A DNA stretch of 32,000 nt from an uncultured Bacilli bacterium (GTDB lineage: Bacteria > Bacillota_I > Bacilli_A > RF39 > UBA660). A program made the translations under genes and the position numbers. Below are positions 6,772 through 27,648 of the stretch, in pieces. The DNA lies in NCBI GenBank assembly GCA_910584085.1, contig CAJTZY010000001.1:172567-204566 (forward strand), read 5' to 3'. The notes under the pieces are model-generated. The model was not told the origin of the DNA and did no database searches. It worked only from the letters and a program-made list of their open reading frames with translations. Every line of letters starts with the position of its first letter. The stretch's first letter is position 1.

Positions 6772-6796
6772 ATTATAATTATAAAAGTAAATATAA

Positions 6797-6842: not shown

Positions 6843-6880
6843 AAAAATATATAATGATTAATTTTGTAGGGAGTGTAGAC

Positions 6881-8645: not shown

Positions 8646-8703
8646 AATTAATAAAAAAATATATAAATTGATAAATTATTGTACTTATGAAGGGAGATTT
8701 TAG

Positions 8704-9927
8704 ATGAAAAAAATATTATACTACATATTATTTATTTTAATGCTTATTCCAGTGGGTGCTGGAGCAATGGAACTACCTAAACTATATTCAGATAAGGTTT
8801 TACTATATGATCCAGAATCACAAGAAATTCTTTATGAAGAAAAAAGTGAAGAAGTTACAAGTATTGCTAGTTTAACTAAAATTATGACTACTATAGTTGC
8901 CATTGAAAATATAAAAAATTTAGATGAACAGGTAAAAATAACTTGGAATATGTTAAGTGAAGTGCCATATGATGCATCAGTTGCTGGACTAAAAGTGGGC
9001 GATAAAGTTACATATAGGGACTTACTTTATGCATCAATACTGCCATCAGGAGCAGATGCAACAACCGCACTCGCACATAGCATAAGTGGAACAACAGATA
9101 AGTTTATTGTCCTTATGAATAAAAAAGCGAGTGAGTTAGGACTTAAACACACACATTTTTCAAACGTTACAGGTTATGATATAGATAATCATTACAGTAC
9201 TGCAAAGGAAGTATTACAAATACTTTTATATTCATTAAAAAATCCATTATTTAAAGAAATTTATGAAACTAGAACGTATACATTATCAAATGGGTTAAAA
9301 GTAGAAAGCACTGTTAACCGTTATAACAGAACACTTAAATTAGATTTATCAAAAATAATTGGTAGTAAAACTGGTTATACAGGGGATGCTGGACTTTGTA
9401 TGTCGGCCATAATAAGAACTAATAATAAAGACTTAATATTAATCACATTAGGAGCAGAATATTCTAGAACAAACCCATATAATCTAGTTGATACATTAAA
9501 TATAATAGAATATTTAGATGATAATTATAATACCAAAGTGTTATATAAAAAGGATGAAGAACTTTTTAAAATTCCCGTAAAAAATTCAAAAGTAGATGAG
9601 TATATAGTTAAAGTTAAAGATAATATAGAAAAGTATGTTGAAGTTAATTATGACACTTCAGATTTAAAATATGAGTATGATGGTTTAAATGAATTAAGCT
9701 ATAAAAATAAGGAAGGAGAAAAAATAGGGCATATTAACTACTATTATAAAAATAAATTATTTTATGATGAGGATATATATTTAGTAGAAGAACTTAAATT
9801 TTCTTTTTATAAATATTTTATGTCACATATAGTAGAATTTTCTTCATTATTTTTAATAGGTGTTATAATGATTATTTTAATAAAATCAAAATGTAAAAGA
9901 AGAAAGAGAGTCTTAAGTAAATCTTAA
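8704..9927 (+). CDS. serine-type D-alanyl-D-alanine carboxypeptidase (S11/PBP5-like) with a C-terminal membrane anchor
   Basis: Signal peptide, SxxK motif (SIASLTKIMT), KTG motif (SKTGYTGDAG), C-terminal TM helix plus a KRRKR tail. It occupies the vanY position of the cluster. Confidence 0.85.
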   Translation: MKKILYYILFILMLIPVGAGAMELPKLYSDKVLLYDPESQEILYEEKSEEVTSIASLTKIMTTIVAIENIKNLDEQVKITWNMLSEVPYDASVAGLKVGDKVTYRDLLYASILPSGADATTALAHSISGTTDKFIVLMNKKASELGLKHTHFSNVTGYDIDNHYSTAKEVLQILLYSLKNPLFKEIYETRTYTLSNGLKVESTVNRYNRTLKLDLSKIIGSKTGYTGDAGLCMSAIIRTNNKDLILITLGAEYSRTNPYNLVDTLNIIEYLDDNYNTKVLYKKDEELFKIPVKNSKVDEYIVKVKDNIEKYVEVNYDTSDLKYEYDGLNELSYKNKEGEKIGHINYYYKNKLFYDEDIYLVEELKFSFYKYFMSHIVEFSSLFLIGVIMIILIKSKCKRRKRVLSKS

Positions 9928-9934
9928 GACTTTT
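9910..9934 (+). terminator. hairpin/weak terminator that is also a phased TCTTAAG repeat
   Basis: gtcttaag (9910-9917) pairs with cttaagac (9923-9930) around a 5-nt loop, followed by tttt. It contains TCTTAAG at 9911 and 9922, an 11-bp period. Confidence 0.45.
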
Positions 9935-10019
9935 ATAATACTAAATTAAAGAATAACTAATTATTAATTGATACAATTTAAATGTGTTAATTAATAATTT
10001 TTTTAAAGGAGTGATTAAT

Positions 10020-10841
10020 ATGGCTAGAAAAACCTTGACACAAACCTTACCATTTTTAAGACCAATAAGAGTTTTTCAAAGAAACCTATTTTATCAAATA
10101 TCTATGTATTTTGATAAAAATAAATATTCAAAGAATTTTGGTAATTTATTAGGGTATGAAGTATGTAATGCGAAAACACTTATGATTAATGAAAATAGTG
10201 GACAAGATATAATATATCAAAAAAATAAAGTAGATAATTTAAAAATAACAAGTAAAACAATGAATAGAGTACTTATTTATCCAGGTGAGGTATTTTCATT
10301 TTGTTATTTAGCTAAGAATAGCAAAAAATACGGAAAATACAAAAAAGGACTTATTTTAGTTAATGGAAAAATAGTCAAAGAAAAGGGTGGAGGAATATGT
10401 CATCTAAGTAATTTATTGTACTATTTGTTTTTAATGAGTCCTCTTGATATAGTTGAAAGACATGGACATAAATTTAAATCATTTCCAAATCCTGATGAAA
10501 ATTCTTTAGAAGGAATAGATGCTACAATAAGTAGCGGCTGGTTAGATTTAAAAGTAAAAAATAATACAAATAATATATATCAAATTGTAATTGACTTTGA
10601 CGATGATTATATGTACGCTAAAATACTTACAAATAATAATGTTAATGTAAAATATTCTATTATTAATAGTAATTTTAAATACATAAAAAAGAATAATAAA
10701 ATATATGAAAATGTATCAGTTGTTAAAATAATTAAAGATAAAAACACTAATGAAATGATATCTAGTCGAAAGTTATATGATGAAGTTGTAGAGGTAAGGT
10801 ACAAATTACCTGATAGTGTAAAAATAGAGGAGGAATTATGA
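10020..10841 (+). CDS. vanW: VanW family protein
   Basis: ORF 9984..10841. AAAGGAG at 10006-10012 favours the ATG at 10020. It has the VanW-like core GEVFSF...GGGICHLSNLLYY. It is coupled to the downstream ligase gene by an ATGA overlap. Confidence 0.85.
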   Translation: MARKTLTQTLPFLRPIRVFQRNLFYQISMYFDKNKYSKNFGNLLGYEVCNAKTLMINENSGQDIIYQKNKVDNLKITSKTMNRVLIYPGEVFSFCYLAKNSKKYGKYKKGLILVNGKIVKEKGGGICHLSNLLYYLFLMSPLDIVERHGHKFKSFPNPDENSLEGIDATISSGWLDLKVKNNTNNIYQIVIDFDDDYMYAKILTNNNVNVKYSIINSNFKYIKKNNKIYENVSVVKIIKDKNTNEMISSRKLYDEVVEVRYKLPDSVKIEEEL

Positions 10842-11881
10842 GTAAAATAAAAGTTGCTATAATTTTTGGTGGATGTTCTAGTGAATATCAAGTTTCACTA
10901 GTATCTGCATCATCAGTTATTAGAAATATGAATAAAGAAAAATATGAAGTTATAATGATAGGAATAACAAAAATAGGAGATTTTTATTTATATAATGGAG
11001 ATATAGACTCTATAGAAAAAGATAATTGGTTTAATGAATCAAGAGTGGAAAAAATAACATTTTCAAGTAACAAGAGTGATAAGGGATTTATTATTTTAAA
11101 AACTGGTGAACTTGTAAAAATTGATATTGTATTTCCTATTTTACATGGAAAAAATGGAGAAGATGGTAGACTTCAAGGATTAATGGAACTATCTGATATT
11201 AAATATATCGGTTGTAATATGATATCATCCTCTATTTGTATGGATAAATATATATCAAAAAAATTAGTAGAGATGAGTGGTATACCAACTTCAAAGTCCT
11301 ATTCATTTAGTAGTTTAGATAGTTATAGTGATATAGAAGATAAAATTAGTGATTTAAACTATCCTATATTTGTAAAACCACTCGCATCTGGCTCATCATA
11401 TGGAATTACTAAAGTGAAATCCAAAAAAAATTTAAAAGATGCAATCAAAAAAGCTTTCACTTATGATGATGAAATAATAATAGAGGAAAATATAGATGGA
11501 TTTGAAGTTGGTTGCGCGATAATGGGAAATAAAGAACTCATAATAGGTGAGGTTGATGAAATAGAACTAAGTACTGATTTTTTTGATTATACAGAAAAAT
11601 ACACACTAAAAACGAGTAAGATTCATGTACCTGCTAGATTAGATGAAGATATAAGAAAGCAAATTAAAATGACTGCATTAAGTATATATAAAACACTTAA
11701 ATGTTCTAATCTTGCAAGGGTAGATATGTTCTATACTAAGGATAAAAAAATTGTCTTTAATGAGGTAAATACTTTACCAGGTTTCACCTCACACAGTAGA
11801 TATCCTAGTATGCTAAAGAAAAGCGGATATTCTTTTAGTGAAATTATTGATAAATTAATAGAACTAGGACTTAAAAAATGA
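10838..11881 (+). CDS. vanG: D-alanine--D-serine ligase, VanG-like (Ddl family)
   Basis: Ddl/ATP-grasp motifs are present: KVAIIFGG.S.EY.VSL, FPILHGKNGEDGRLQG, NEVNTLPGFTSHSRYP. The omega-loop region EIELSTDFFDYTEKYTLKTSKI matches what I recall of VanG-class ligases. It sits next to vanXY and a racemase, and there is no vanH. Confidence 0.85.
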   Translation: MSKIKVAIIFGGCSSEYQVSLVSASSVIRNMNKEKYEVIMIGITKIGDFYLYNGDIDSIEKDNWFNESRVEKITFSSNKSDKGFIILKTGELVKIDIVFPILHGKNGEDGRLQGLMELSDIKYIGCNMISSSICMDKYISKKLVEMSGIPTSKSYSFSSLDSYSDIEDKISDLNYPIFVKPLASGSSYGITKVKSKKNLKDAIKKAFTYDDEIIIEENIDGFEVGCAIMGNKELIIGEVDEIELSTDFFDYTEKYTLKTSKIHVPARLDEDIRKQIKMTALSIYKTLKCSNLARVDMFYTKDKKIVFNEVNTLPGFTSHSRYPSMLKKSGYSFSEIIDKLIELGLKK

Positions 11882-12615
11882 AAAAATATATACTTAAACA
11901 CTCGGATATTTATAAAGGCAATTTAATATTAGTAAATAAAGAACACAAAATAAATACGGAAATTAATTCAAATAATCTAGTTTCATTTAATAATAATTAT
12001 AGCAATATATTACTTGATGAATCTGCAAATAAGTTTTTACAAATTATATTAAAAGAAATTAATGGTTTAAATCAAATTATTCCAGTAAGTGGATATAGAA
12101 GCTTAATGGAGCAAGAAGAAATTTATTTTTCATCTATAAAAGAAAATGGTGAAGACTTTACAAAAAAATATGTCGCACTACCAAATTCTAGTGAGCATCA
12201 AACAGGCCTTGCTATAGACTTAGGACTTAATACTGGAAAAATAGATTTTATAAGACCATCATTTCCAAATAGTAGAATTTGTGATAATTTTAGAAAAACA
12301 TCAATAAATTATGGATTTATAGAAAGATATGAAAGTGAAAAAGAAAATATAACAGGTATAGGTAAAGAAGAATGGCATTTTAGATATGTTGGTTATCCAC
12401 ATTCAGTTATTATGAAGGAAAAAAATCTTTGTTTAGAAGAATACATAAATTATTTAAGGCAGTATGAAAAAGATAGTTTAAAATATAAAAATTATGAGAT
12501 ATCTTACATACCTTATAATAATGAAGATATAGAACTAACAATAGAAAATAATACAGTAATATCAGGAAACAATGTAGATGGATTTATAATTACAAGGAAT
12601 ATGCATGAAAAATAA
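11878..12615 (+). CDS. vanXY: bifunctional D,D-dipeptidase/D,D-carboxypeptidase VanXY (M15 family)
   Basis: Zn-ligand and catalytic motifs SGYRS..EQ, SEHQTGLAIDL and EEWHFRYVG. ATGA overlap with the ligase gene. Confidence 0.88.
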   Translation: MKKYILKHSDIYKGNLILVNKEHKINTEINSNNLVSFNNNYSNILLDESANKFLQIILKEINGLNQIIPVSGYRSLMEQEEIYFSSIKENGEDFTKKYVALPNSSEHQTGLAIDLGLNTGKIDFIRPSFPNSRICDNFRKTSINYGFIERYESEKENITGIGKEEWHFRYVGYPHSVIMKEKNLCLEEYINYLRQYEKDSLKYKNYEISYIPYNNEDIELTIENNTVISGNNVDGFIITRNMHEK

Positions 12616-13627
12616 TGTAAAAATTAATCTTGATAAATTTAGATTTCTAGCTGCCCTTTTAGTAATTTCAATACATACATATCCATTTTTAAATATAAAT
12701 AGTGAAATAGACTATATTATTACTAGAGTACTTGCAAGAACTTTAGTTCCATTTTTCCTTATGACAACCGGTTATTTTCTTATTCCAAAGGCACTTAAAC
12801 ATAAAGAAATATTAAATGGTTATGTAAAGAAGATAATAAAAATATATATTATTTGTATCTTAATTTATTTACCTATAAATATTTATACAAAGGGCCTTGA
12901 TAATCTAAACCTTATAAATATCCTTAAAGGCATATTTATAGATGGAACCTTCTATCACCTATGGTATTTCCCCGCACTTATTCTAGGAATTTTAATAACT
13001 TGTACAATACTAAAAAAATTAAATAATAAAAAATCCTTTATCATATTCATTATTCTTTATTTAATAGGATTATTTGGTGATAGTTATTATGGCTTAATTA
13101 AAAATACAATATTTGAAAATGTTTATAACTATATATTTATGATTTCAAATTATACAAGAAATGGATTATTTTATGTACCTATATTTTTGTATTTAGGTTA
13201 TACATTTAATACCCATAATTATAACATTACTAAAAAACAGAATATAATACTTTTAATACTTTTCAGTATTTTATTAGGACTTGAGGGATATAACTTATAC
13301 TTATTAGATATACCAAGACATAACAGTATGTATTTAACATTAATACCATGCATGATTTTATTATTTAATCTGCTAATTAAAACAAATGATACACAAAGTA
13401 GAAACTTAAGAGAAATATCAGAACTTATATATATTATTCATCCTATGTCAATTATTTTTATAAGAGGTATTGCTAAATTTATTAAACTGGAAAACATTAT
13501 GATAAATAATAATTTTATTCATTATATATGTGTAGTAATTTTAACTTTAATTATATGTATTATATTTATAAAAATAAAGGAAGTAATAAAACATGGCTTT
13601 AGAAAAAGAAGAAACTTCACTATCTAG
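12605..13627 (+). CDS. vanT: VanT membrane (acyltransferase-3-like) domain protein, the N-terminal part of the serine racemase VanT
   Basis: Polytopic membrane protein of about 10 TM helices, directly upstream of the racemase ORF and overlapping it by 35 nt. This corresponds to the N-terminal half of single-chain VanT proteins. Confidence 0.8.
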   Translation: MKNNVKINLDKFRFLAALLVISIHTYPFLNINSEIDYIITRVLARTLVPFFLMTTGYFLIPKALKHKEILNGYVKKIIKIYIICILIYLPINIYTKGLDNLNLINILKGIFIDGTFYHLWYFPALILGILITCTILKKLNNKKSFIIFIILYLIGLFGDSYYGLIKNTIFENVYNYIFMISNYTRNGLFYVPIFLYLGYTFNTHNYNITKKQNIILLILFSILLGLEGYNLYLLDIPRHNSMYLTLIPCMILLFNLLIKTNDTQSRNLREISELIYIIHPMSIIFIRGIAKFIKLENIMINNNFIHYICVVILTLIICIIFIKIKEVIKHGFRKRRNFTI

Positions 13628-14729
13628 TAGAGCTTGGATAGAAATAAATGTAGAAAATTTAATTTATAACATAAAACAAATAGAAAATATAATACCCAAG
13701 GATACTAAAATAATGGCAGTCGTTAAGGCAAATGCTTATGGGCATGGTATGATTACTATATCTAAAATATTAGAGGAGTATGGTATAAATGATTTTGCAG
13801 TTGCAACAATTGAAGAGGGAATAACTTTAAGAAAAAATGGACTAAAAGGAAATATTTTAATACTAGGATATACAGACCTAAGTAAAATAGAGGATATAAT
13901 AAAATATAATTTAATTCAAACTATAGTAGACTATGAATATGCATATAAGTTATCAACACTTAATTTATCAAAAAAAGTTAAAGTACATATTAAAATAAAT
14001 ACTGGAATGAATAGACTAGGAGAAAGTTATAAAAATATTGATAGTATTAAAAAAATATATAAATTTAAAAACCTTAATATTCTTGGAATATATACCCATC
14101 TTGTAGCACCAGATAGTCTTTTAAAAGAAGATATAAAATTTACACAAAGTCAAATAAATAATTTTTATACTTTAATAAATATATTAAAAACTGAAGGATA
14201 TAATGTAGGAAAAATACATATTCAAAGTAGTTATGGAATTCTAAATTATTCGAATCTTAAATGTGACTATGTAAGACCGGGGATTATTATGTATGGAGTT
14301 TGTAGTGGGAACACTAGGATAAAAATAAATCTTAAGCCAGTTCTTTCATTAAAGGCTAAAGTAACGAGTATTAAATATATAGCTAAAAATGAACCAGTTA
14401 GTTATGGTAGAAAATATATAACAAATAAAAACATTAAAATAGCAACTGTCTCTATTGGATATGCAGATGGATTGCCTAGAAGTTTATCACTCAAAAACAC
14501 TAAAGTACTTATAAATAATCATTATGCCGAAATTATTGGTAGAATTTGTATGGATCAGTTAATAATAGACATATCTAATTTAAATGTAAAAGTAGGGGAT
14601 GCAGTTACACTAATAGGTGATAAATATTATATTAGAGCAAATTTTATAGCAAAAAAAGCAAGTACAATACCAAATGAATTATTAAGTAGATTAGGTAATA
14701 GACTAGAATATAAAATAGTAAAAAATTAA
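13593..14729 (+). CDS. vanT: PLP-dependent serine/alanine racemase, the C-terminal part of VanT
   Basis: Alr-family motifs: PLP-lysine AVVKANAYGHG, plus NTGMNRLG and VSYG...A.V.IGYADG. It has its own AAGGAAG RBS 9 nt upstream of the ATG at 13593. Confidence 0.88.
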   Translation: MALEKEETSLSSRAWIEINVENLIYNIKQIENIIPKDTKIMAVVKANAYGHGMITISKILEEYGINDFAVATIEEGITLRKNGLKGNILILGYTDLSKIEDIIKYNLIQTIVDYEYAYKLSTLNLSKKVKVHIKINTGMNRLGESYKNIDSIKKIYKFKNLNILGIYTHLVAPDSLLKEDIKFTQSQINNFYTLINILKTEGYNVGKIHIQSSYGILNYSNLKCDYVRPGIIMYGVCSGNTRIKINLKPVLSLKAKVTSIKYIAKNEPVSYGRKYITNKNIKIATVSIGYADGLPRSLSLKNTKVLINNHYAEIIGRICMDQLIIDISNLNVKVGDAVTLIGDKYYIRANFIAKKASTIPNELLSRLGNRLEYKIVKN

Positions 14730-14832
14730 ATCAGTTTATTTAATAATATTCTTATTACATTTTATATTTATATTTTGATAATAAGGCTTTTTTCTTTTTT
14801 TTAAAAAAATTTAAAAATAAAATAAGGAAGTA

Positions 14833-14877
14833 TGCTATAATATAACTGTTGTGAGTAATAAAGTTAACTTAATACTC
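14833..14877 (+). promoter_or_regulatory. candidate DGR promoter (extended -10) followed by an imperfect inverted repeat
   Basis: TGcTATAAT at 14833-14841. Imperfect palindrome gagtaataaagtt/aacttaatactc at 14853-14877, centred on gttaac, upstream of the avd RBS. Confidence 0.35.
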
Positions 14878-14904
14878 ATTAACTAGTTAGAGGTTATAGT
14901 TAAA

Positions 14905-15486
14905 ATGTATCAAGTAAGTAGAGATAGTAATTTAAAAATTCCCAAAAAAATTGAAATAAATTATAAAAATATAAATAGTAATGATGAAATAATTGCTATA
15001 AAAAAAGCTATTTGTATAGCCAAAGATAAAAAATATATAAATAATTTAAGTAGCAATCTAAAAATAACTGATAAGGAACTAGATCTAGTATCAAAAATAC
15101 CATGTAATTCGAACGACCTAGTAGTTATAACAACAATGAAAAAATTGGGAGCTTATGTAATTACAATAACAGAAAAGTCCCCTAAAAAATTTAGAAGGGT
15201 ATTTGTAAATAGAATGCAAAATTATTGTTTAGAAACGTTAGAATATTTACTTGAAGCTAATTTTATTAGAATAGATTCAATAGATAAGAAACTACAAAGA
15301 GAAGAATTACAAAAAGAGGCAATAATTAAGTTAAAACTTTTAGGATATATTTCTATGGTCGCACAATCATCTGGGTGTATTTTAGGCAGACAATATAAAC
15401 AAATTTCTATTCAGCTAACTAAAGTAATTAATTTAATAATTGCCTGGAAAAAAAGTGACGATGATAGATGGAAATTAAAAAAATAG
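14905..15486 (+). CDS. avd: DGR accessory variability determinant (Avd-like four-helix-bundle protein) with an N-terminal extension of about 70 aa
   Basis: The C-terminal ~120 aa are basic and helical (SPKKFRRVFVNRMQNYCLETLEYLLEA ... QISIQLTKVINLIIAWKKS), which parallels the Avd pattern. The gene lies immediately 5' of the TR and RT. Confidence 0.75.
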   Translation: MYQVSRDSNLKIPKKIEINYKNINSNDEIIAIKKAICIAKDKKYINNLSSNLKITDKELDLVSKIPCNSNDLVVITTMKKLGAYVITITEKSPKKFRRVFVNRMQNYCLETLEYLLEANFIRIDSIDKKLQREELQKEAIIKLKLLGYISMVAQSSGCILGRQYKQISIQLTKVINLIIAWKKSDDDRWKLKK

Positions 15487-15557
15487 GATTATAAGTTGAA
15501 AGACTTTTAATTAAGGGAAAAATTAAATTGTGAGGCCACTTGTCCTAGTCCTTAGTT

Positions 15558-15631
15558 CGCCCGCGCGGTTAACTAAAACGGAAATAAGAATTGGAATAAT
15601 GTTAATAAACGTGATGGTGGTTGTCGTCCAG
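15558..15631 (+). repeat. DGR template repeat (TR)
   Basis: GC-rich ends (cgcccgcgcggtt ... gtgatggtggttgtcgtccag) around an A-rich core with 24 adenines. In the VR frame it carries 7 AAY codons. It matches VR 17219-17291 at every C, G and T. Confidence 0.92.
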
Positions 15632-15844
15632 ATTCACTTTTGAAGAGATTTATTGTAATCTAAAAAACAAGTGAGAGAATATATTTTATGTGAGATATGT
15701 GAGTACTGTAAAGTGAAGGAATTTTTCTCTTTTCTAATCGCTAAAAGGAATTAGTGCGATGGGAAAATTGTTGACACCTACACAACCAACAAATATTATA
15801 TATATTTTTTGGGAGTTATAAGAGGTGTTTTTTTAGGAGTAAAT
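15632..15844 (+). ncRNA. DGR spacer RNA region between the TR and the RT start (part of the TR-containing transcript)
   Basis: Non-coding stretch between the TR and the RT RBS (AGGAG at 15835-15839). The call rests on its position in the DGR architecture only; I did not resolve any structure. Confidence 0.4.
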
Positions 15845-16864
15845 ATGAAGTTAAATGAAATTTTTAATTTTGAAAATTTGTATAGAGCACATAAAAATTG
15901 CCGTAAATCTAAACAACATAAAGGTGAAGTAATAAGATTTGAAACTAATTTAAGTGCCAATATAATGAATATAATAGATGAAATATGCACAAAAAAATAT
16001 AAATTAGGGAAATATAAAAGATTTCTCATTTATGAACCAAAAGAAAGATTAATAGAGGCACTTCCTTATAAAGATAGAGTAGTTATAAGGTGTTTTTGTG
16101 ATGCATGTCTAAAAGATAGAATAGAAAAAAAATTAATTTTTGATAATGCAGCTTGCAGAGTAGGCAAAGGTACTAATTTTTCAATACAAAGATTACATAA
16201 ATTTTTAAGAAGTGAATATATAAAAGAAAATAATAATGAAATATATTTTTTAAAGTGTGATATTAAGAAATATTTTCCAAGTATTAATCATAATATTTTG
16301 ATAAATTTATTAGAGAAGGTTGGATTTTCAAGTGATGAGATGTGGTTTATTAAAAAGATTATATGTGAACAACCAAGTAATAGAGATGTTGGCTTACCAC
16401 TTGGAAATCAATCAAGCCAGTGGTTCGCACTTTTATATTTAAATGAAATAGATAGATTAATTAAGGAAAAGTTGAGAGTTAAGTGCTATGTAAGATATAT
16501 GGATGATATGATTTTAATTCATAGAGATAAAAAATTTTTAAGGGAGTGTAAGGATCTTATAGAGAGAATGTGTAAAGATAGACTTAAACTATCATTAAAC
16601 CAGAAAACTGGAATAGGTAAAGTAAGCAATGGAATAGATTTTTTAGGATATCGGCATATTTTAAATTGTAGAGGACGCGTTATAATTAAGCTTAGGGCAT
16701 CTTCTAAAATTAGATTGAAAAGACATATTAAAACACTAATGAAACTTAGGAAAAACGAGGTAGTTGATGACAATTATATTTTATTACGTAAAAATTCATT
16801 TTATGAACATATAAGATTAACTAATGAAAGTAAAGAATTAAAAAATATTGTTATACCTAAATAA
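15845..16864 (+). CDS. DGR reverse transcriptase
   Basis: ORF 15809..16864. AGGAG at 15835-15839 favours the ATG at 15845. LGNQSSQ at 16400-16420 is the DGR-type [ILV]GxxxSQ motif. YMDD catalytic motif at 16496-16507. There is no maturase/En domain and no intron RNA. Confidence 0.92.
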   Translation: MKLNEIFNFENLYRAHKNCRKSKQHKGEVIRFETNLSANIMNIIDEICTKKYKLGKYKRFLIYEPKERLIEALPYKDRVVIRCFCDACLKDRIEKKLIFDNAACRVGKGTNFSIQRLHKFLRSEYIKENNNEIYFLKCDIKKYFPSINHNILINLLEKVGFSSDEMWFIKKIICEQPSNRDVGLPLGNQSSQWFALLYLNEIDRLIKEKLRVKCYVRYMDDMILIHRDKKFLRECKDLIERMCKDRLKLSLNQKTGIGKVSNGIDFLGYRHILNCRGRVIIKLRASSKIRLKRHIKTLMKLRKNEVVDDNYILLRKNSFYEHIRLTNESKELKNIVIPK

Positions 16865-16887
16865 TTGCAAATTATTTATTTGCAATT
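16863..16887 (+). other. perfect 10-bp hairpin between the RT and the target gene
   Basis: aattgcaaat (16863-16872) pairs with atttgcaatt (16878-16887) around a 5-nt loop. There is no strong T-run, so it could be an attenuator, a processing site or a weak terminator. Confidence 0.4.
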
Positions 16888-17218
16888 ATAAATTTTATAA
16901 AGAACAAAGTGTACTTTTTTTGATATTATTAGTAAATTTTGATGTAAATAATTTAAAAATAATATAAAATATGCTATACTTAAAATAGGTGATGTAAATG
17001 AATAAAATTAATTTAACACTTTTAACAGTAGAAGAAATTTTTGGAAGTGATAAGAAGAAGCCGTTAGAAATATTTGAAAAATATGGAACAAAAGCAGCAA
17101 TAACAGATTTTTCAGTAGCCTTAGGAGGATATATAAATGATAACTTCTTTACTGATGATGGTAAATCATTAGCTAATAGAACAGGATGGTGGTGGACCAA
17201 AAGTCCAATAAACAACGA

Positions 17219-17291
17219 CGCCCGCGCGGTTGACTGGATCGGGAGTAAGGGTTGGATAGTGTTAATGAACGTGGTGGTGGTTGTCGTCCAG
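17219..17291 (+). repeat. DGR variable repeat (VR)
   Basis: 73 nt. Compared with the TR there are 11 substitutions, all at TR adenines, plus one A deleted. The invariant 3' end gtggtggttgtcgtccag looks like an IMH. The VR covers codons ~75-98 of the target. Confidence 0.92.
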
Positions 17292-18934
17292 CTTTACCGT
17301 TCTCATCAATCTCTAAAATCTCCTCGAACGTAGTGAGAGGTAGAAATGGTATTCTCGAAGTAGAATTTGGAGAATATCCACAGTGGACTTGTTCAAAACA
17401 ATTAGGTAAAACATTAGAAAGATTGTATAGAAGTAACACCCTAAATAAAACAGGAAAATGTTATACAACAGATTCTAGACCATATAGTGAATATGATAAG
17501 GGATTCGCTTCTCAAAAACATATAGAATATGAATATAATGGTAAAAAATATGTTAGAGTCAAGGTTAATTCATATTTTGATGGTAGTGAAATAACATTTT
17601 CAAATGGAGAAAAGTATAAAGATGGGGATTTTATTTGGATTAGTGTTAGCCCTATAAAATGGTTAGTAGATGAAAAAAATGATTTAGCAATTACTAAAAA
17701 CATAATAGTATCTGGAGTTCAGTTTAATATAGAAAGTAATTATAATGGGAAAAATTTTGATAAGATGAATATAAAAAAATTTTTTGATAACGATTTATCA
17801 AAAGATATAGTATTATCAAAAGATTATGATGTAAATTTAAATAAGACTGATATAATGCCCAAAAACTTATTGAAAAAGAAAAATCCATATAATTTTAACT
17901 TTGATAATGTAAGTGAAGAGGATATAATAAAAGGTTCAGTAGAGAGCAATGTTTCAGTATTTTTACATGGACAATCAAGTGAGGGTAAAAGTGCAAGGGT
18001 AAAACAATTAGATCCAGATTTAGAAATCATATATTTGGGTACAGCAACACCAGAAAGTTTAAATGGAAAAAGTGTGTATAATTCTAATACAGGAGAAATG
18101 ATAGATGTTCCTCCTACATGGTATAAAAAAATCAAACAAAAATGCGAAAGTGAACCAAATAAAATTCACATATTGTTTTTTGATGAATTAACAAATGCAG
18201 TACCTTCAATACAAAAAATGGCATTTAATATTGTACTTGATAAGGAAATAGACGGAAAGTGGAAACTTCCAGATAATGTAAGAATAGTTGCAGCTGGAAA
18301 TGAGTTAAATGATTCCCTTGCAGCTAATACAATGGCGGAACCATTATTTAACCGTTTCGCACATGTATATATACAAACAACAGCTGAATCTTGGTTAAAA
18401 TGGGCGTGTACGCCAGAGCAAGAGTATAAGAGATTAGATTATCAGGAGTCAAAACAAGAATATAAAATACATCCTGCAATTTATTCTTTTATAGCATTTA
18501 GGGGAGATGAAGTTTTAAGAACAGAATATACTGGCGATAAACCAAATGCAGATCCAAGAAAATGGGAATTAGCCTCTAAGGTACTATACCAAACTAGAAA
18601 TCCTGAAATGCTAAGGGCCTTAGTTGGTGAAGATATAACATCTGAGTTTTGTGCATTTTGTAAACAACGGGTTATAACTCTTGAAGATGTTATTAATGAC
18701 AATTATTCAGAGTATGATTTAGAAATGGGAATGTCAGAAAAGTATGCTACTATAGTAGGATTATCTCGATGTAATTATGAAAATCTAAAAAAAGTTAGAA
18801 TTTTTGCAATGAAATTAGGTTCAGAATTTTGTGCGTTATTTGATAGTTTATGGGCGCATGGCGACTTAGAAAGAGTAGAAAAAATTGCAGAATTAACGAT
18901 AGATAATGATTATATTGGAGGTATGAAAAAATGA
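17252..18934 (+). CDS. AAA+ ATPase (MoxR/AAA_5-like) ORF as it stands, the downstream part of the frameshifted DGR target
   Basis: Walker A GQSSEGKS (17969-17992), Walker B ILFFDE (D-E at 18182-18187), sensor-1 RIVAAGN, and EPLFNRF, an Arg-finger-like motif. Upstream there is a region with EFGEYPQ and SPIKWLV motifs. Confidence 0.8.
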   Translation: MDSVNERGGGCRPALPFSSISKISSNVVRGRNGILEVEFGEYPQWTCSKQLGKTLERLYRSNTLNKTGKCYTTDSRPYSEYDKGFASQKHIEYEYNGKKYVRVKVNSYFDGSEITFSNGEKYKDGDFIWISVSPIKWLVDEKNDLAITKNIIVSGVQFNIESNYNGKNFDKMNIKKFFDNDLSKDIVLSKDYDVNLNKTDIMPKNLLKKKNPYNFNFDNVSEEDIIKGSVESNVSVFLHGQSSEGKSARVKQLDPDLEIIYLGTATPESLNGKSVYNSNTGEMIDVPPTWYKKIKQKCESEPNKIHILFFDELTNAVPSIQKMAFNIVLDKEIDGKWKLPDNVRIVAAGNELNDSLAANTMAEPLFNRFAHVYIQTTAESWLKWACTPEQEYKRLDYQESKQEYKIHPAIYSFIAFRGDEVLRTEYTGDKPNADPRKWELASKVLYQTRNPEMLRALVGEDITSEFCAFCKQRVITLEDVINDNYSEYDLEMGMSEKYATIVGLSRCNYENLKKVRIFAMKLGSEFCALFDSLWAHGDLERVEKIAELTIDNDYIGGMKK

Positions 18935-19338
18935 GTCAAGAAAAAAGATTAGAAATGTTAAATGATTATATTAAAATGAATATTGCTCCTATCTTAGTGG
19001 AAAATATCCCATCTAATATATTTGGAAGTAATTCAGTTATTCTTCCAGCAGAACTTGATATATCAATGCTAAATGGGCATTATGAAGGGATAGAATTTAT
19101 GCCTCCTTCATGGTATGTTCAAGTAGTTAGAAATTCTAGTAGTAGCAATAATATCTTAGTGATAGATGAAATCTCAAGGGTATCAAAAGAAGATCAAATG
19201 AAATTTTATGAACTATTAAAGTATCGAAAAATTGGAACATTTGATTTACCAAAAAATTGTGTAATAATTATTACTTGCAGAGATAAGAATATTCCATTAA
19301 TTAATGAAAAATTAGTATCTTTATTTGTACATATTTAG
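18931..19338 (+). CDS. small Walker-A-less AAA-like protein (degenerate paralogue of the upstream ATPase core)
   Basis: ATGA overlap with the ATPase gene; GGAGG RBS. LNGHYEGIEFMPPSWY...ILVIDEISRVS...VIIITCRD...LVSLFVHI aligns by eye with LNGKSVYN..DVPPTWY...ILFFDELTNAV...RIVAAGNE...FNRFAHVYI of the upstream protein. Confidence 0.65.
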   Translation: MSQEKRLEMLNDYIKMNIAPILVENIPSNIFGSNSVILPAELDISMLNGHYEGIEFMPPSWYVQVVRNSSSSNNILVIDEISRVSKEDQMKFYELLKYRKIGTFDLPKNCVIIITCRDKNIPLINEKLVSLFVHI

Positions 19339-19345
19339 GTGAATT

Positions 19346-20839
19346 ATGATTGTAGATAAAGATACTATAAAAAAAAGATTACTTGTAAAATATCCTTTTT
19401 TTAGAAGTACAATAGCTAAACTTAAAATAGTTGAAGATATAAATTGTCTAGGATATAATGGTAATCCAACAGCTGGTACAGATGGAGATACAGTATATTA
19501 CCATCCAGACTTTATGAATAACTTAGATGAAGATGAACAACTTTTTATATTTGCTCATGAAGTTGGTCATGTCGCTCTCAATCACATTATAAGAAGTGAA
19601 GGTAGAGATCAAGAAATTTGGAATATAGCAGCAGATGCCGTTTTAAATGCAAATTTAATTAAGGATGGTTTAAAGTTTGTTAAGGGCGGGGTTAATATTC
19701 CAGAAGCCATTAATTACAATGCAGAAACCTTTTATAATAAATTGATTCAGGAAAAAGAACAAAAAAAATCACAAAATCAAAAAGGTAATGGTAATCAACA
19801 ATCAAATTCAAAGGCGGATGAGTGTAAAAATAGTAGTCAAAGTGATTCTAGTAATCAAAATATAAAACAAAATAGTAATGACAGCAATAATATACCCGAT
19901 GATGCAAACTATGATGTCGGATTTGATACTCATAAAATGTGGAATGATGCGATAAATAAGACATTTAATTCTAGTGATGGAACAAATGAATTAGATAACT
20001 CCAAAAATGACCGTAATAACAAGGATAAACAGAGTTTTCTAGAAAAACTATTTAAAAAAAAGAAAGACAAAGGTAGACAATTAGAACAAACTGAAAAGGA
20101 AAATCAGGAAAGCGAAAATCAAAATAATATTTTTGAAATGGATGAACAAGAGGCATTCAGCAAAAATAGAGAGGAAAAGAAAAAATTACTTAGGGAATTA
20201 AGGGATTCATTTGCCAAACAGTCTATAGGTGCAGGGAATACTACTGATCAGTCAATAAGGAAGATAGATAATATTGGAACATCTATTTCATTAATAGACT
20301 GGAGAAAATTACTAAAAGAATGTGTAAAGTTTGATATAGATTGGACTTATAAAAATGCAACTATAGAAAATGGTGTAGTTACTCCATATCTTGAAGAAAC
20401 TCCAACGCCAGAAACTGAAATAGTTTTAGATACCAGTGGGTCAATAGATGATAATTTACTTAGAAATTTTTTAATGGAATGCAAAAATATACTTCAGACA
20501 TCCAAAGTGAAAGTGGGATGCTTCGATACTAAATTTTATGGTTTTCAGGAGATTAAAACGGTTAAAGACATAGAAAATATGGAATTTAAAGGACATGGCG
20601 GTACAGATTTTAATGTTGCAGTAGAAGCTTTCTCAAAACGTGTAGAAAATAAAATAATATTTACTGATGGTCAAGCGAGTATGCCAGAAAAGTCAATAGA
20701 TGCAATTTGGATAGTTTTTGGTGGAAGGAAAATTAATCCTAAAGGTGGAAAGGTAATTTATATTTCGGACGAACAATTTAAAAGATTATGCTTTAAACAA
20801 AATGATGATAATTTACAAGGTAAGAATAGGACAAGATAA
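19346..20839 (+). CDS. DUF2201-type protein: N-terminal HExxH putative metallopeptidase, low-complexity linker, C-terminal vWA-like domain
   Basis: FIFAHEVGHVALNH (HEVGH at 19556-19570) followed by WNIAADAVLN. MIDAS-like VLDTSGSID (20429-20443). GHGGTDF and IIFTDGQ motifs. A linker of about 170 aa is rich in N, Q, S, K, E and D. Confidence 0.85.
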   Translation: MIVDKDTIKKRLLVKYPFFRSTIAKLKIVEDINCLGYNGNPTAGTDGDTVYYHPDFMNNLDEDEQLFIFAHEVGHVALNHIIRSEGRDQEIWNIAADAVLNANLIKDGLKFVKGGVNIPEAINYNAETFYNKLIQEKEQKKSQNQKGNGNQQSNSKADECKNSSQSDSSNQNIKQNSNDSNNIPDDANYDVGFDTHKMWNDAINKTFNSSDGTNELDNSKNDRNNKDKQSFLEKLFKKKKDKGRQLEQTEKENQESENQNNIFEMDEQEAFSKNREEKKKLLRELRDSFAKQSIGAGNTTDQSIRKIDNIGTSISLIDWRKLLKECVKFDIDWTYKNATIENGVVTPYLEETPTPETEIVLDTSGSIDDNLLRNFLMECKNILQTSKVKVGCFDTKFYGFQEIKTVKDIENMEFKGHGGTDFNVAVEAFSKRVENKIIFTDGQASMPEKSIDAIWIVFGGRKINPKGGKVIYISDEQFKRLCFKQNDDNLQGKNRTR

Positions 20840-20862
20840 ATATAAGATCTATGTCCTTTTTT
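20828..20862 (+). terminator. intrinsic terminator closing the target operon
   Basis: aggaca(a)agat (from 20828) pairs with atct(a)tgtcct (to 20857), followed by ttttt. The stem overlaps the stop codon. Confidence 0.65.
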
Positions 20863-20907
20863 GATATCAAACATTGGGCATTTTCATATAATAAGTAGGT
20901 GATATTA

Positions 20908-21765
20908 TTGAATATATTAATAAATTATAAATTGTATATAATTTTATATTTGATATTTTCTGTATTATTTAATCAATATTACAAAGTATCAACTAAATAT
21001 TCGAAAAATGATGGCGCACTCACTATATTACTTGAACTGATTGGAAGTTTATTTTGTATAATTATGATCCCATTCTTTGAAATAAAATTCCCAAACAATC
21101 CTAGTTCATATTTATTCTTCTGTGTAGCAATAATTTTTTATACATTAAATAATAGATTATCTACAACATCTAGAAGTGGAATAGAAGCCTCTACTTATTC
21201 TATAATTAAACAATTATCTACAGTATTTATGATATTTGCTGGGATATTGTTTTTTAAAGAGTCGTTTAGTATATATAAAATAATAGGTGCGTTTCTAATT
21301 GTCTTTAGCAATATTTTAGTTTTTTATAAAAGAAAGGCTCTAAAATTTGATAAATATATAATACTAGGGGTTTTAGCAAATATTTGCATGACAATCGCAT
21401 TATTTATAGATGTTAACTATTCAGAATATTTTAATTTAGCGATATACGTTTTATTAACCTTACTTATACCATCCATATTAACATTTATATTTGAAAAAAT
21501 TCATATTAAAGATATTATTATAGAGTATAAAAATAGTAGCAAAATAAGTATATTTATAACATCCCTTTCATGGGGATTTATGCTTATCTTTAAGCTTTTA
21601 GCTTATAATTTTGGCGAGGTAATTATAGTCGCACCTCTATGTAGTTTAACAGTTATTTTAAATATTTTTGCTAGCTTTCTATTTTTAAAAGAAAAAGATA
21701 ATTTAGTAAAAAAAATTATAGCTAGTATTCTAATAATAATAGGTATAATTTTAATTAAAATATAG
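20908..21765 (+). CDS. DMT/EamA-family transporter
   Basis: ORF 20899..21765 starts at a GTG. AGGTGA at 20895-20900 fits the in-frame TTG at 20908 better, so the start is uncertain. About 10 TM helices arranged as two EamA-like halves. Confidence 0.75.
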   Translation: MNILINYKLYIILYLIFSVLFNQYYKVSTKYSKNDGALTILLELIGSLFCIIMIPFFEIKFPNNPSSYLFFCVAIIFYTLNNRLSTTSRSGIEASTYSIIKQLSTVFMIFAGILFFKESFSIYKIIGAFLIVFSNILVFYKRKALKFDKYIILGVLANICMTIALFIDVNYSEYFNLAIYVLLTLLIPSILTFIFEKIHIKDIIIEYKNSSKISIFITSLSWGFMLIFKLLAYNFGEVIIVAPLCSLTVILNIFASFLFLKEKDNLVKKIIASILIIIGIILIKI

Positions 21766-21824
21766 TATTTATATACTAAAAATGATATAATCAGTAAAAG
21801 ATTTAAACTTAAAAGGAGAAGGAA

Positions 21825-22895
21825 ATGAAGAAAAAAAGAATAGTTGTTTTACTAACTTTATTAATAATTTCCATTTTTACTATATTTATATTTAATAATA
21901 ATTTAAAGACCCATGAAAATATAAATAATAAAAATTCACAAGATGCAATTAAAAATAATAAAGATGAAAATTTTAATGAAGAGATAAAAGAAGTAGAAAA
22001 AACAAATTTAGTAAGTTACAATGGATGGTTAAATATAGAAAACAATACATTAGTTAATGAAAACCATGAGAAAATTATGTTAAAAGGAATGAGTACTCAT
22101 GGAATTCAGTGGTATGGGAATTTAGCAAACTATTCTATGATTAAAAGTTTAAGGGATGAATGGAATAGTAATTTATTTAGAGTTGCCATGTATACAGAAC
22201 AAAATGGTTATATAGAAAATAAAGAATTAAAACAAAAGCTGATTGAAATTGTTGATAATGTTATAAAACTTGATATGTATGTAATAATAGACTGGCATAT
22301 ATTAAGTGACGGAGATCCATTAATACACAAAGAAGAAGCAAAAGAATTCTTTGATGAAATAAGTAATAGATATAAAGATTATCCAAATGTAATATATGAA
22401 ATATGTAATGAACCAAATGGAAATATAACATGGGATGATAATATTAAACCATATGCTATCGAAGTAATAGATGTAATAAGAAAAAACAGTAAAAATAGTA
22501 TAATAATAGTAGGAACTGGAACCTGGAGTCAAGATATTGATAAAGTAAGCAATAACAAAATAGATGATGATTTAGTTATGTATGCTCTACATTTTTATTC
22601 TGGAACGCATACTGAGTGGCTAAGGGAACGTGCTTTAAACGTATTAAATGAAATACCTATATTTGTATCAGAATGGGGCGTAAGTGATCTTTCTGGAAAT
22701 AATGGAGTATATCTAGATGAAGCAGAAAAATGGGTTAATTTTATGAATGAAAATAATATAAGTTGGGCAAATTGGTCATTATCAAATAAAGATGAATCAT
22801 CCGCACTTTTACTTCCAAATTCTGATATAACAGAAATAAAAGACGAGTATCTATCTCAAAGTGGACATTTTATAAAAAAAGCTATGTTAGAGTGA
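21825..22895 (+). CDS. glycoside hydrolase family 5 endoglucanase (cellulase), secreted or membrane-anchored
   Basis: N-terminal signal/anchor sequence. GH5 motifs: IYEICNEPNG (acid/base Glu) and IFVSEWG (nucleophile Glu). Also HFY..H. Confidence 0.88.
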   Translation: MKKKRIVVLLTLLIISIFTIFIFNNNLKTHENINNKNSQDAIKNNKDENFNEEIKEVEKTNLVSYNGWLNIENNTLVNENHEKIMLKGMSTHGIQWYGNLANYSMIKSLRDEWNSNLFRVAMYTEQNGYIENKELKQKLIEIVDNVIKLDMYVIIDWHILSDGDPLIHKEEAKEFFDEISNRYKDYPNVIYEICNEPNGNITWDDNIKPYAIEVIDVIRKNSKNSIIIVGTGTWSQDIDKVSNNKIDDDLVMYALHFYSGTHTEWLRERALNVLNEIPIFVSEWGVSDLSGNNGVYLDEAEKWVNFMNENNISWANWSLSNKDESSALLLPNSDITEIKDEYLSQSGHFIKKAMLE

Positions 22896-23576
22896 TAAAT
22901 TTAATTTATTATATGGTATAACTACTTGAAACTCTCCAGAACTATAAGGTGCAACTTGATAGTATTCAAAAAATATAATTAATCCATCTTTAGAAAATGC
23001 AAAATTGGAAAAATTATTAAGTGTAGGTTTAGTACCTTCAAACATCATATTAGAATCCACAATATCTTTATTAGTTAATAACTCTTTTCTACTTATAGAT
23101 GAAAATATATCTAATATATTGGGATTTAGTTTAATAAAACCATTAATATCCATAATTTCATTTTTTGATTTATCAAAAGTTATTGTAAATATTTCATGGT
23201 TTGGATGTGCACCTCCAGTATAATAATCAACATGAAATACATATGATATATAATTTTTATATTCATACATACTATAAACAATATCAAGTGTATAATATTG
23301 GTCTACTTGGACATTCGCACCCTTAATATCATCTTTAAATTGATATATAATTTTATCAATTTTTTTTGTTATCTCTTCATTCAACACATCAAATTCACTT
23401 TCTGGATAATATATTAAAATTTTATATTTGTGTTCATTTATAGCAATCTTCTTTTCACTACTATTAATTGAACTAGAATATTTGCCACAAGTAATAGTAT
23501 TACTATCCTTATTAAAAAAAGTAGTTAAATATATTAAAAACATAAATATAATTACTAATGAAATTTTCTTCTTCAT
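22887..23576 (-). CDS. DUF3298/DUF4163-type protein (PdaC C-terminal-like), secreted or lipoprotein-like
   Basis: ORF 22887..23627 on the - strand. The likely start is the internal Met (MKKKISLVIIF, ATG at 23576). It has the YYTGGAHPN motif typical of DUF3298. It converges on the GH5 gene and overlaps it by 9 nt. Confidence 0.75.
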   Translation of the reverse strand: MKKKISLVIIFMFLIYLTTFFNKDSNTITCGKYSSSINSSEKKIAINEHKYKILIYYPESEFDVLNEEITKKIDKIIYQFKDDIKGANVQVDQYYTLDIVYSMYEYKNYISYVFHVDYYTGGAHPNHEIFTITFDKSKNEIMDINGFIKLNPNILDIFSSISRKELLTNKDIVDSNMMFEGTKPTLNNFSNFAFSKDGLIIFFEYYQVAPYSSGEFQVVIPYNKLNLSL

Positions 23577-23759
23577 ATTAGAATATATGCAGCTTATAAA
23601 TAGGAAATAATTATATTTAAAATGCACATAGTATTTGTAAATTACAAAAAGTATGATATACTATTTTTAGTTAATAATTATGCATTTCAAAACAATAAAT
23701 GTTTATAAAAAGTATTAAGTATTTAAAAGAAAAATATATCTATAGCAAGGAGGGATAAA

Positions 23760-23819
23760 ATGTGTAAATCAGGAGATATAATAGTTGTAAAAGAATTTAA
23801 AAATGAATATGGTGAATAA
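23760..23819 (+). pseudogene. possible remnant of a small toxin-like gene (19 codons, then stops)
   Basis: Strong AAGGAGG RBS at 23748-23754, then MCKSGDIIVVKEFKNEYGE-stop. Short in-frame fragments follow up to about 23920. The resemblance of GDII.V to PemK/MazF N-termini is only suggestive. Confidence 0.25.
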
Positions 23820-23927
23820 ATAATAAATCTGGGTATATAAAATCAGACCAATTAAAAAGGTTTGCTAAAAAATATAACAACCAATTTAGAAAAGGTTGGT
23901 TCATAAATGTAAATTATAATTAAAAAG

Positions 23928-23956
23928 TTGACAAAAATATTATTAAATGATACTAT
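23928..23956 (+). promoter_or_regulatory. candidate promoter upstream of the small ORF and LiaF-like operon
   Basis: TTGACA (23928-23933), 17-nt spacer, TGaTACTAT (23948-23956). A second extended -10, TGTATAAT, lies at 23994-24001. Confidence 0.4.
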
Positions 23957-24023
23957 ACTTATCAATTATTTATACATTTTTAACTTAATTTAGTGTATAA
24001 TAGAAAATGAGAGAGGTGGTCAG

Positions 24024-24191
24024 ATGGAAAAGAAAGAAAGCCCTAAATTTCCTAAAGGTTTCTTTACACAACCTAGGCCTACTATAAGTATGAAAGAAGC
24101 CTTAAAAGATGTTTCGCCCTTTGAATGGAGTGAAAATATCTTAAAAGGAAAAAGCAAAGTAAAAATAGTATCTACTAAGAATAATAGTTAG
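24024..24191 (+). CDS. small hypothetical protein (55 aa; below the ORF-track cutoff)
   Basis: GAGAGGTGG RBS 5 nt upstream of the ATG at 24024. Translation: MEKKESPKFPKGFFTQPRPTISMKEALKDVSPFEWSENILKGKSKVKIVSTKNNS. A terminator hairpin follows directly. Confidence 0.5.
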   Translation: MEKKESPKFPKGFFTQPRPTISMKEALKDVSPFEWSENILKGKSKVKIVSTKNNS

Positions 24192-24209
24192 TCAAGACTA
24201 ACTGTTTTT
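24186..24209 (+). terminator. intrinsic terminator after the 55-aa ORF
   Basis: agttagtc (24186-24193) pairs with gactaact (24196-24203), followed by gttttt. Confidence 0.6.
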
Positions 24210-24239
24210 AATATATATATATAAAGAAGGAGATAAATT

Positions 24240-24917
24240 ATGAAAAAAACAAGAAATGTTTTATGGGGGATTGTACTAGTAGCCTTAGGGTTGATATTTG
24301 GTTTAAACGCACTAGAAATAACAGATATTAATATATTTTTTAATGGGTGGTGGACTTTATTTATTATTATTCCATGCTTTATTGATCTATTTAAAGATAG
24401 TGATAAGACAGGTAATATAATAGGGCTAATAATTGGTATAGTACTATTTCTATGCTGCCAAGATTTATTTGAATTTGAACTTGCATGGAAACTTATGATA
24501 CCAGTTATATTAGTTATAATAGGTTTATCATTTATCTTTAAAGATACATTAAATATTAAAGTTAGAAAAGAAATAAATAAATTAAATAAAAACGAAACGC
24601 AAGAGTATTGTGCAACATTCGGTGGACAAAAAGTAAATTATGACAATGAAGAATTTAAAGGATGTACATTATCAGCAGTATTTGGTGGCGTAGAATGTGA
24701 TTTAAGAGAAAGCATTATAAAGGATGACGCTGTTATAAATGTATGTGCCGTATTTGGAGGAGTAGACATACTAGTTCCAAAAGATGTTAAAGTTAAAGTT
24801 ACATCAACACCACTATTTGGGGGAGTAACAAATAAAGTTAAAAAGACTAAAGATAAAGATGTTAAAACAATATATGTAAATGCAACTTGTATATTTGGAG
24901 GAGTTGATATTAAATGA
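24240..24917 (+). CDS. LiaF-like cell-wall-active-antibiotic response protein (DUF2154-type)
   Basis: N-terminal 4-TM region. The C-terminal domain has reiterated FGG strands: TFGGQKV, VFGGVECDL, VFGGVDILVP, LFGGVTNK, IFGGVDIK. Confidence 0.75.
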   Translation: MKKTRNVLWGIVLVALGLIFGLNALEITDINIFFNGWWTLFIIIPCFIDLFKDSDKTGNIIGLIIGIVLFLCCQDLFEFELAWKLMIPVILVIIGLSFIFKDTLNIKVRKEINKLNKNETQEYCATFGGQKVNYDNEEFKGCTLSAVFGGVECDLRESIIKDDAVINVCAVFGGVDILVPKDVKVKVTSTPLFGGVTNKVKKTKDKDVKTIYVNATCIFGGVDIK

Positions 24918-25729: not shown

Positions 25730-25767
25730 TAAGGAGCCTGGTGGCTTTTTATTATAAAGAGGAAAAT

Positions 25768-26160: not shown

Positions 26161-26176
26161 TTTATAAGGAGAAGTT

Positions 26177-27052: not shown

Positions 27053-27054
27053 AT

Positions 27055-27522: not shown

Positions 27523-27620
27523 AAGGAATATCAGTGGATAATATTTTTTTCATTAATTTAATCTCCATATTGTTATTTGAATTATGTGATAAATTTATAT
27601 TTTAAATACCTTAAAAAAAT

Positions 27621-27648
27621 TTGACAAATTCATTTTTTGTGATATAAT
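27621..27648 (+). promoter_or_regulatory. near-consensus sigma-A promoter
   Basis: TTGACA (27621-27626), 16-nt spacer, TGaTATAAT (27640-27648). Confidence 0.55.

Follow-up and report, generated by a model that had tools for sequence, protein, structure and literature searches.

The target gene of a chromosomal diversity-generating retroelement (DGR) is split in the window, by which we mean the whole 32,000-nucleotide stretch of DNA analysed here, through the loss of one template adenine inside its VR. The reading that we favour, with a probability of about 0.6, is that this is a real and recent null allele that was made by the DGR, through the skipping of an adenine in the last mutagenic retrohoming, and that the DGR can also reverse. 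The locus is a DGR with the order Avd-like gene, TR, reverse transcriptase (RT) and target, and its features are as follows:

14905-15486, + strand: Avd-like accessory gene, 193 aa, intact (weak Avd-model matches, conserved position)
15558-15631, + strand: TR, 74 nt, with a core at 15571-15615 containing 23 adenines
15574-15576, + strand: in-frame TAA stop inside the TR, TGG in the window VR (codon-wise TR/VR comparison)
15596-15597, + strand: template adenine pair, one of which has no VR counterpart (TR/VR comparison)
15845-16864, + strand: DGR reverse transcriptase, 339 aa, intact (Pfam RVT_1, E=4.8e-18)
16998-17333, + strand: 5' fragment of the target, 86 genuine N-terminal residues and a 25-residue out-of-frame tail, 12.6 kDa (ORF list; the identical 111-aa P0121 is on record)
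17219-17291, + strand: VR, 73 nt, with a core at 17232-17275 (44 nt rather than 45)
17252-18934, + strand: 3' part of the target in the other frame, comprising the last part of the sensor module, then a beta-rich domain in the middle and a MoxR-like AAA+ ATPase (alignment, tblastn, fold matches)
17255-17257, + strand: site of the missing adenine, where the codon AAT reads A-T and the frame changes (single A at 17256; TR/VR comparison)
18931-19338, + strand: 135-aa ORF with a 4-nt overlap with the target stop
19346-20839, + strand: DUF2201 protein, a putative metallopeptidase with a VWA-like domain (Pfam)

The RT contains YMDD at residue 218 and QSSQ/SQ at residues 189-192, of which the SQ motif characterises DGR RTs (PMC3521204), and the RT protein is identical in a second assembly. 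Differences between TR and VR are confined to template adenines (12 of 12 substitutions, and one adenine deletion), and ongoing diversification is apparent across relatives from a hypervariable patch at identical columns of 26 aligned homologues and from 20 TR/VR pairs. The product of 14905-15486 gives weak matches to Avd models (NCBIfam DivGenRetAVD, E=1.1e-5, 25.6 bits with a cut-off of 80; Pfam bAvd, E=0.002, 18.9 bits, under the cut-off of 40), and its gene occupies the same position in relatives. Downstream of the target, the 135-aa ORF (18931-19338) has no family match in Pfam or NCBIfam. The DUF2201 protein (DUF2201_N, E=5.2e-28; DUF2201, E=1.3e-15; Peptidase_M48, E=3.5e-5) is the VWA-domain neighbour in this MoxR/VWA arrangement, and is presumed to be the partner of the MoxR-like ATPase. 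PADLOC gave no match for the target, the 135-aa ORF or the DUF2201 protein, and only the RT matched its generic RT/DRT models.

Directly upstream of the DGR, the window contains a vanG-like cluster (6854-14729), with genes for a response regulator, a histidine kinase, a D,D-carboxypeptidase, VanW, a protein of the D-Ala-D-Ala ligase family and VanY, as well as an acyltransferase-3 membrane protein and an alanine racemase. In VanT the membrane and racemase parts are normally joined in a single polypeptide, whereas in the window they are encoded by separate ORFs that lie in different frames (12605-13627 and 13593-14729, with a 35-nt overlap). A racemase of equal length (378 aa) in the same 90% cluster occurs in another sample (P0256).

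The TR and VR are direct repeats on the + strand, and in the repeat finder the TR-to-VR offset is 1661 for 15558-15595 and 17219-17256 as opposed to 1660 for 15596-15637 and 17256-17297, a drop from which it follows that the VR is short by exactly one base. The 12 substitutions in the core all lie at TR adenines (11 A>G and one A>T), leaving 10 of the 23 core adenines unaltered and one deleted, and there is no non-adenine mismatch inside the TR/VR pair. At the lesion, TR 15593-15600 reads GGAATAAT and VR 17254-17260 reads GGATAGT. The TR of a related strain (L083, 91% nucleotide identity) is equal in length and has GGAACAAT at this site, and AA is therefore the ancestral and the window VR the derived state. 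The first-pass annotation had claimed that loss of a template adenine in the VR breaks the target frame, and on this the coordinates, the sequences and the 1-nt step in the offset all agree. The extent of mutagenesis in the window (12 of 23 adenines) is close to that in the family, where 44% of the 467 adenine sites in 20 TR/VR pairs are changed; the substitution spectrum is biased towards A>G, with 11 of 12 in the window, and with counts of G 98, T 55 and C 53 across the 20 pairs. Two further differences just 3' of CCAG, 15632 A>C and 15635 C>T, were considered as products of mutagenesis and rejected, as they are fixed across about 20 related elements: in all of these the TR reads ...CCAGATTCAC and the VR reads ...CCAGCTTTAC. 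Because it is constant in the relatives, the difference past CCAG marks a fixed 3' boundary of the homing region.

Translation from ATG 16998 loses the frame at codon 87: 86 genuine residues are followed by IVLMNVVVVVVQLYRSHQSLKSPRT and the stop TAG at 17331-17333, and the resulting 111-aa ORF terminates in ...DWIGSKGWIVLMNVVVVVVQLYRSHQSLKSPRT. The ORF at 17252-18934 begins MDSVNERGGGCRPALPF, and its 560-codon frame is open and conserved, with no gaps or stops relative to 25 full-length homologues. The frameshift is the only lesion in the target. It had been proposed that restoring the A would give a single gene of about 645 codons, and the repaired protein (73.8 kDa) does match the family from end to end. 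A search with it returned 3583 hits, of which the best 120 are mostly 625-690 aa in length and 57-61% identical at 98-100% query coverage. More than 100 homologues are single in-frame proteins with the hypervariable patch in the same place, and in an alignment of 26 sequences the repaired protein runs without gaps through the VR, with the hypervariable columns coinciding with the VR. Since the homologues are in one piece, the split in the window is a lesion in a normally continuous gene, and the target as assembled reads as a null allele. The lesion also appears from the sequence to be recent, because the Avd-like gene, TR, RT, VR flanks and the rest of the target are all intact. Gene decay, one of three explanations offered at the outset, thus has nothing in its favour beyond the frameshift itself.

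The predicted target consists of an N-terminal variable module, presumed to be a sensor, fused to a MoxR-like AAA+ ATPase. Residues 310-635 match annotated MoxR ATPases in phage and plasmid records (tblastn, E from 1e-13 to 1e-18), and Walker A and B motifs (GQSSEGKS, ILFFDE) are present in the target sequence, while Pfam and NCBIfam give AAA hits below threshold only. For structure models, the homologues P0006 and P0125 stand in for the repaired target. The AlphaFold model of P0006 (61% identical, pLDDT 79) matches MCM, the MoxR protein 2r44 and NorQ with a Foldseek probability of 1.0, the sequence identity of the fold matches to MoxR (2r44) and NorQ being 10-14%. In the sensor module, which was examined for a C-type-lectin or Ig-like ligand-binding fold, Pfam finds DUF6273 in 8 of 44 homologues (best E=2e-5) and Fib_succ_major in 5 of 44. 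The model of the variable module (pLDDT 86, pTM 0.80) gave no fold match in the PDB or BFVD at E<=0.001, and a profile search of the whole target family against PDB sequences gave no match. By eye, the target N-terminus has no obvious signal sequence. Tandem target copies, two or three in number, are frequent in relatives (L045, L047, L031, L008, L030, L066, L067), and the two copies in L031 have identical tblastn statistics. Among 2.9 million viral contigs just one encodes a target relative (L087, IMGVR_UViG_3300006217_003178), and the family therefore appears to be essentially cellular rather than phage-borne.

The frameshift could be an artefact of sequencing or assembly, with a true VR of 74 nt and an intact gene, an explanation also raised in the first-pass annotation and one that now looks unlikely. 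The 111-aa product P0121 and the 533-aa product P0001 are both in the records, solely from an NCBI source, which shows that the frameshift is present in one deposited assembly, the only one known to have it. A Logan assembly of run ERR3199593, which appears to represent the same strain, is identical to the window over 5845-17123 and 17647-30390, with a 523-nt gap between the two, and so gives no cover over 17124-17646. The VR is moreover flanked by repeats common to a paralogue, which would make the spot hard to assemble. Against an artefact, over 24 kb the Logan contigs match the window at 100% identity and with 0 indels, which argues for a very low per-base error; the ORF listing of the 32-kb window shows no other evident split gene; the change is from AA to A and involves no homopolymer run; and equivalent VR frameshifts occur in unrelated assemblies (see below). 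The break in the Logan assembly is accounted for by a paralogue from another genome (L082), which has an exact 42-mer in common with window 17094-17135: the 42-mer begins at 17094, 29 nt before the contig end at 17123, and this explains a graph break at k=31. Heterogeneity of the VR in culture was considered as a cause of the gap and rejected, because the breaks are too distant from the VR and the 42-mer explains the break. Guessed partial products of 17094-17330 and 17124-17330 are not on record.

The window genome probably also holds such a paralogue, to judge from sequence comparison, and whether the VR is rightly placed in the ATPase-fused gene, and not in the paralogue, hinges on how the assembler resolved the repeats. 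A candidate is P0125 (331 aa, NCBI source only), a sensor without ATPase that is 75% identical to the N-terminal module. All 24 of its 24 VR codons are reachable from the window TR by adenine changes alone, as opposed to the control P0127, which fails at 8, and P0125 is probably a second, intact and remote target of the same DGR. At L082 (MAG GCA_949841305.1, 6265-6343, in the gene for P0126, which adjoins priA) the VR is 3 nt shorter than the window TR, with a best alignment that places a 1-nt gap and a 2-nt gap about 24 nt apart. Measured against the window TR, this could be a compensated frameshift.

Predicted null alleles confined to the VR recur in the target family, and some of them are frameshifts. 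A search with the 111-aa product of the window found eight more protein clusters (P0245-P0252, 98-119 aa) on ENA and NCBI metagenome contigs, with C-termini (...AQLYRSHQS...SPRTERVGKE...) in the same wrong frame as in the window. Seven of the eight break inside the VR core, and the eighth, P0252, lacks most of the VR. In two loci, L084 (GCA_965646405.1, 1862-2267) and L085 (ERZ24773316, 1354-2170), the DNA shows a switch from frame 0 to frame 2 within the VR; their cores measure 44 and 41 nt rather than 45, and beyond the VR the target reads on in its new frame. The break codons in relatives, inferred by hand, are 1-2, 3, 7-9, 8-9 and 13, in addition to the allele without most of its VR. As they differ between alleles, the breaks arose independently and were not taken over from a faulty TR. 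The contigs carrying these alleles are metagenomic and short (0.75-2.3 kb), and the alleles may represent minority variants.

The frequency of such events was estimated from a census of 79 loci with 93 target copies in genome representatives, and 81 loci with 90 copies in metagenomes and viral contigs; the GTDB representatives searched do not include the window's own genome. No VR frameshift was found among the 183 full-length target copies from genomes and metagenomes, and in 27 TR/VR pairs the only indel is that of the window, so the VR frameshift is a rare event. In the first 20 pairs this amounts to one deletion per 467 adenine sites (0.2%). When JGI metagenomes and IMG/VR were scanned for exact matches to the TR/VR flanks, none was found. 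A rearrangement of a different kind occurs in L054 (about 3880-4010), where VR-like sequence, followed by the target from residue 75, directly adjoins the Avd-like gene and the stretch that precedes the TR. From its sequence, this locus looks like a deletion formed by recombination between TR and VR.

Stop codons are the other source of null alleles in relatives. Of 20 TR/VR pairs, 12 have one or two in-frame stops (TAA, TGA or TAG) in the TR, namely those of the window and of the loci L003, L007, L009, L010, L012, L013, L018, L021, L024, L025 and L027. Six of the 15 TR stop codons (40%) remain stops in the VR, giving null targets in L003, L009, L012, L013 and L021. A rough model without selection, using the 44% change rate and the spectrum G 98, T 55 and C 53, gives a retention of about 55% of TR stops, and the observed 40% is not far under this, the numbers being small. 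In genome representatives, VR stops are found in 5 of 93 target copies, at positions 80, 86 and 88 and always at codons that are stops in the cognate TR, with just 2 stops elsewhere in the 645 codons. The metagenome set contains a VR stop in 1 of 90 copies. An alternative code in which TGA is recoded was considered for the VR stops of the relatives and rejected, because tblastn finds no target stops outside the VR in L003, L009 and L012, and TAA and TAG stops occur in VRs besides TGA.

In the proposed mechanism, the RT would skip one adenine while copying AAU AAU into adenine-mutagenised cDNA, and the faulty cDNA would replace the VR, so that the deletion would arrive together with the 12 A>N substitutions. 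A later round of retrohoming would then replace the VR in full and bring the target back into frame. Such a repair is plausible, since none of the parts that it needs (TR, RT, Avd-like gene and the two invariant VR flanks) is damaged. A reversible indel made by retrohoming had been listed among the three initial explanations, and is the best supported of them: the DGR parts and flanks are intact and there is no non-adenine mismatch. It also fits the independent VR frameshifts and the VR stops in relatives. Single-base deletions and insertions are rare in cDNA made in vitro by bRT-Avd (0.1%; PMC6182149), which is of the same order as the 0.2% (1/467) in the family. DGR-dependent restoration of 18 missing nucleotides in a target has been reported, and transient template slippage has been proposed for bRT, with multiple-of-three indels within AAC repeats (PMC12875486). 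The deletion, its place at a template adenine, the intact surroundings, the continuous gene in relatives and their recurrent VR-confined nulls are observations, whereas an origin of the deletion in the RT, its reversibility here and any role of the OFF state in biology are inferred.

The position of the deletion at an A is by itself weak evidence, because about 36% of TR positions are adenines, and nothing ties the deletion to the RT over ordinary replication. An ordinary spontaneous deletion, independent of the retroelement and tolerated since the gene is dispensable (for example in culture), would be a first step of pseudogenisation. The loss of 1 nt requires no special mechanism, the frequency of null VR alleles in relatives suggests weak short-term selection for an intact gene, and one relative, L054, has lost both the RT and the first 74 target codons. 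We nevertheless consider this explanation improbable, given that the deletion hit a template adenine within the 45-nt stretch subject to rewriting by the DGR, that neither a second lesion nor a TR/VR difference away from an adenine is present, that elsewhere the gene shows strong conservation across the family (93 copies contain 2 stops outside the VR), and that 7 of the 8 frameshifted clusters of relatives also break within the VR core.

The split gene might alternatively be expressed on purpose, either by ribosomal frameshifting or as a sensor-less ATPase from one of two candidate internal starts:

17241-17254, + strand: GGGAG, 6 nt and TTG, a candidate internal start giving 560 aa, 64.2 kDa
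17331-17335, + strand: TAGTG, in which the stop of the 5' fragment overlaps GTG 17333, a candidate termination-reinitiation site

Initiation at either TTG 17252 or GTG 17333 would give a candidate ATPase without a complete sensor, and GTG 17333 matches the start of the 533-aa product P0001 (61.4 kDa). The first-pass annotation had pointed to GGGAG (17241-17245) 6 nt upstream of TTG 17252. Its geometry holds, resembling that of real starts in the window such as AGGAG-N5-ATG at 15845, and TAGTG is indeed a stop-start overlap. The GGGAG string has no special significance, however, as the same rule finds 28 strings of a Shine-Dalgarno sequence plus start on the + strand of the window, 18 of the 28 away from listed gene starts, and the one at 17241 exists only through two random A>G changes. 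The break moreover falls inside the sensor module and respects no natural domain boundary. There is no in-frame slippery heptamer (X_XXY_YYZ) between 17247 and 17331, and no homopolymer or tandem repeat of the kind used in simple-sequence-repeat contingency is present at the site, the longest run from the VR to the stop being AAAA at 17315. Ribosomal frameshifting and repeat slippage were rejected for want of a heptamer or repeat, and purposeful expression of the split gene as a whole is very improbable.

A single frameshift is a modest finding, and the more interesting lead is the family-wide occurrence of nulls confined to the VR. DGRs are usually described as varying a protein without breaking it, with TR codons such as AAC that cannot become stops, whereas the window locus and its relatives run opposite, with VR frameshifts at differing positions and TRs that encode stops. 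It is conceivable, though we advance this tentatively and hold it to be doubtful, that this DGR family works as a stochastic ON/OFF switch besides acting as a diversifier, and that the window represents a strain caught OFF. With in-frame stops in most TRs, about half of homing events would write a null, and deletions by the RT would add more. The null would serve as a ‘safe’ state, tolerated or even selected, of a module of sensor, MoxR-like ATPase and VWA-metallopeptidase that has the potential for self-harm, and the next homing event would re-arm it. If this were real, at any moment the sensor would be silent in part of the population, with the gene still conserved overall, as in a contingency locus, with a bearing on how bacteria might limit self-damage from hypervariable intracellular sensors. 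A practical consequence is that annotation may wrongly divide a DGR target into two genes, which seems to have happened here (111 aa and 533 aa).

The locus resembles the DGR of Bordetella phage BPP-1 (bRT, Avd, TR and the VR of mtd) in having an RT with YMDD and SQ motifs, an Avd-like gene, a TR/VR pair with differences at template adenines alone, and a VR whose G/C-rich 3' end is invariant. It differs in its gene order (Avd, TR, RT, target), in which the VR comes after the RT; in the location of the VR, which is near the N-terminus of a 645-aa protein rather than at the C-terminus of a phage tail fibre; and in having a TR with an in-frame TAA and a frameshifted target. As in NorQ/NorD, a gene for a VWA protein lies a short way downstream, and the family-model ATPase matches structures of MoxR (2r44) and NorQ. 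Unlike NorQ, the window target has an extra 300-residue N-terminal sensor and beta-rich region, and no cofactor-insertion client is evident. With contingency loci it would share a hypervariable gene that toggles in and out of frame, with frequent nulls and long-term conservation. In contingency loci the toggling is by slipped-strand mispairing in simple repeats, whereas the window site has no simple-sequence repeat, and the loss and proposed repair would occur by template-directed retrohoming, with the coding sequence changed each time.

In the literature as far as it was searched, with incomplete coverage, TR-encoded stops or natural VR frameshifts are not described as recurring. Most similar among described systems are the DGR-diversified MoxR/vWA ‘ternary’ conflict systems studied by Kaur et al. 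2020 (PMC7159879) and Dore et al. 2024 (PMC10907252), which likewise combine a DGR-varied ligand-binding module, the presumed sensor, with a MoxR-type AAA+ ATPase, a VWA protein and a peptidase. According to these studies, TR codon choice prevents nonsense codons (PMC7159879, PMC10907252), a rule that does not hold in the window family. The hosts also differ, the ternary systems being found in multicellular proteobacteria and cyanobacteria and the window family in low-GC gut Firmicutes (MAGs of Bacilli and Clostridia). By contrast with the ternary systems, the variable module in the window is fused straight to the ATPase N-terminus, and the VWA partner is a DUF2201 metallopeptidase/VWA protein.
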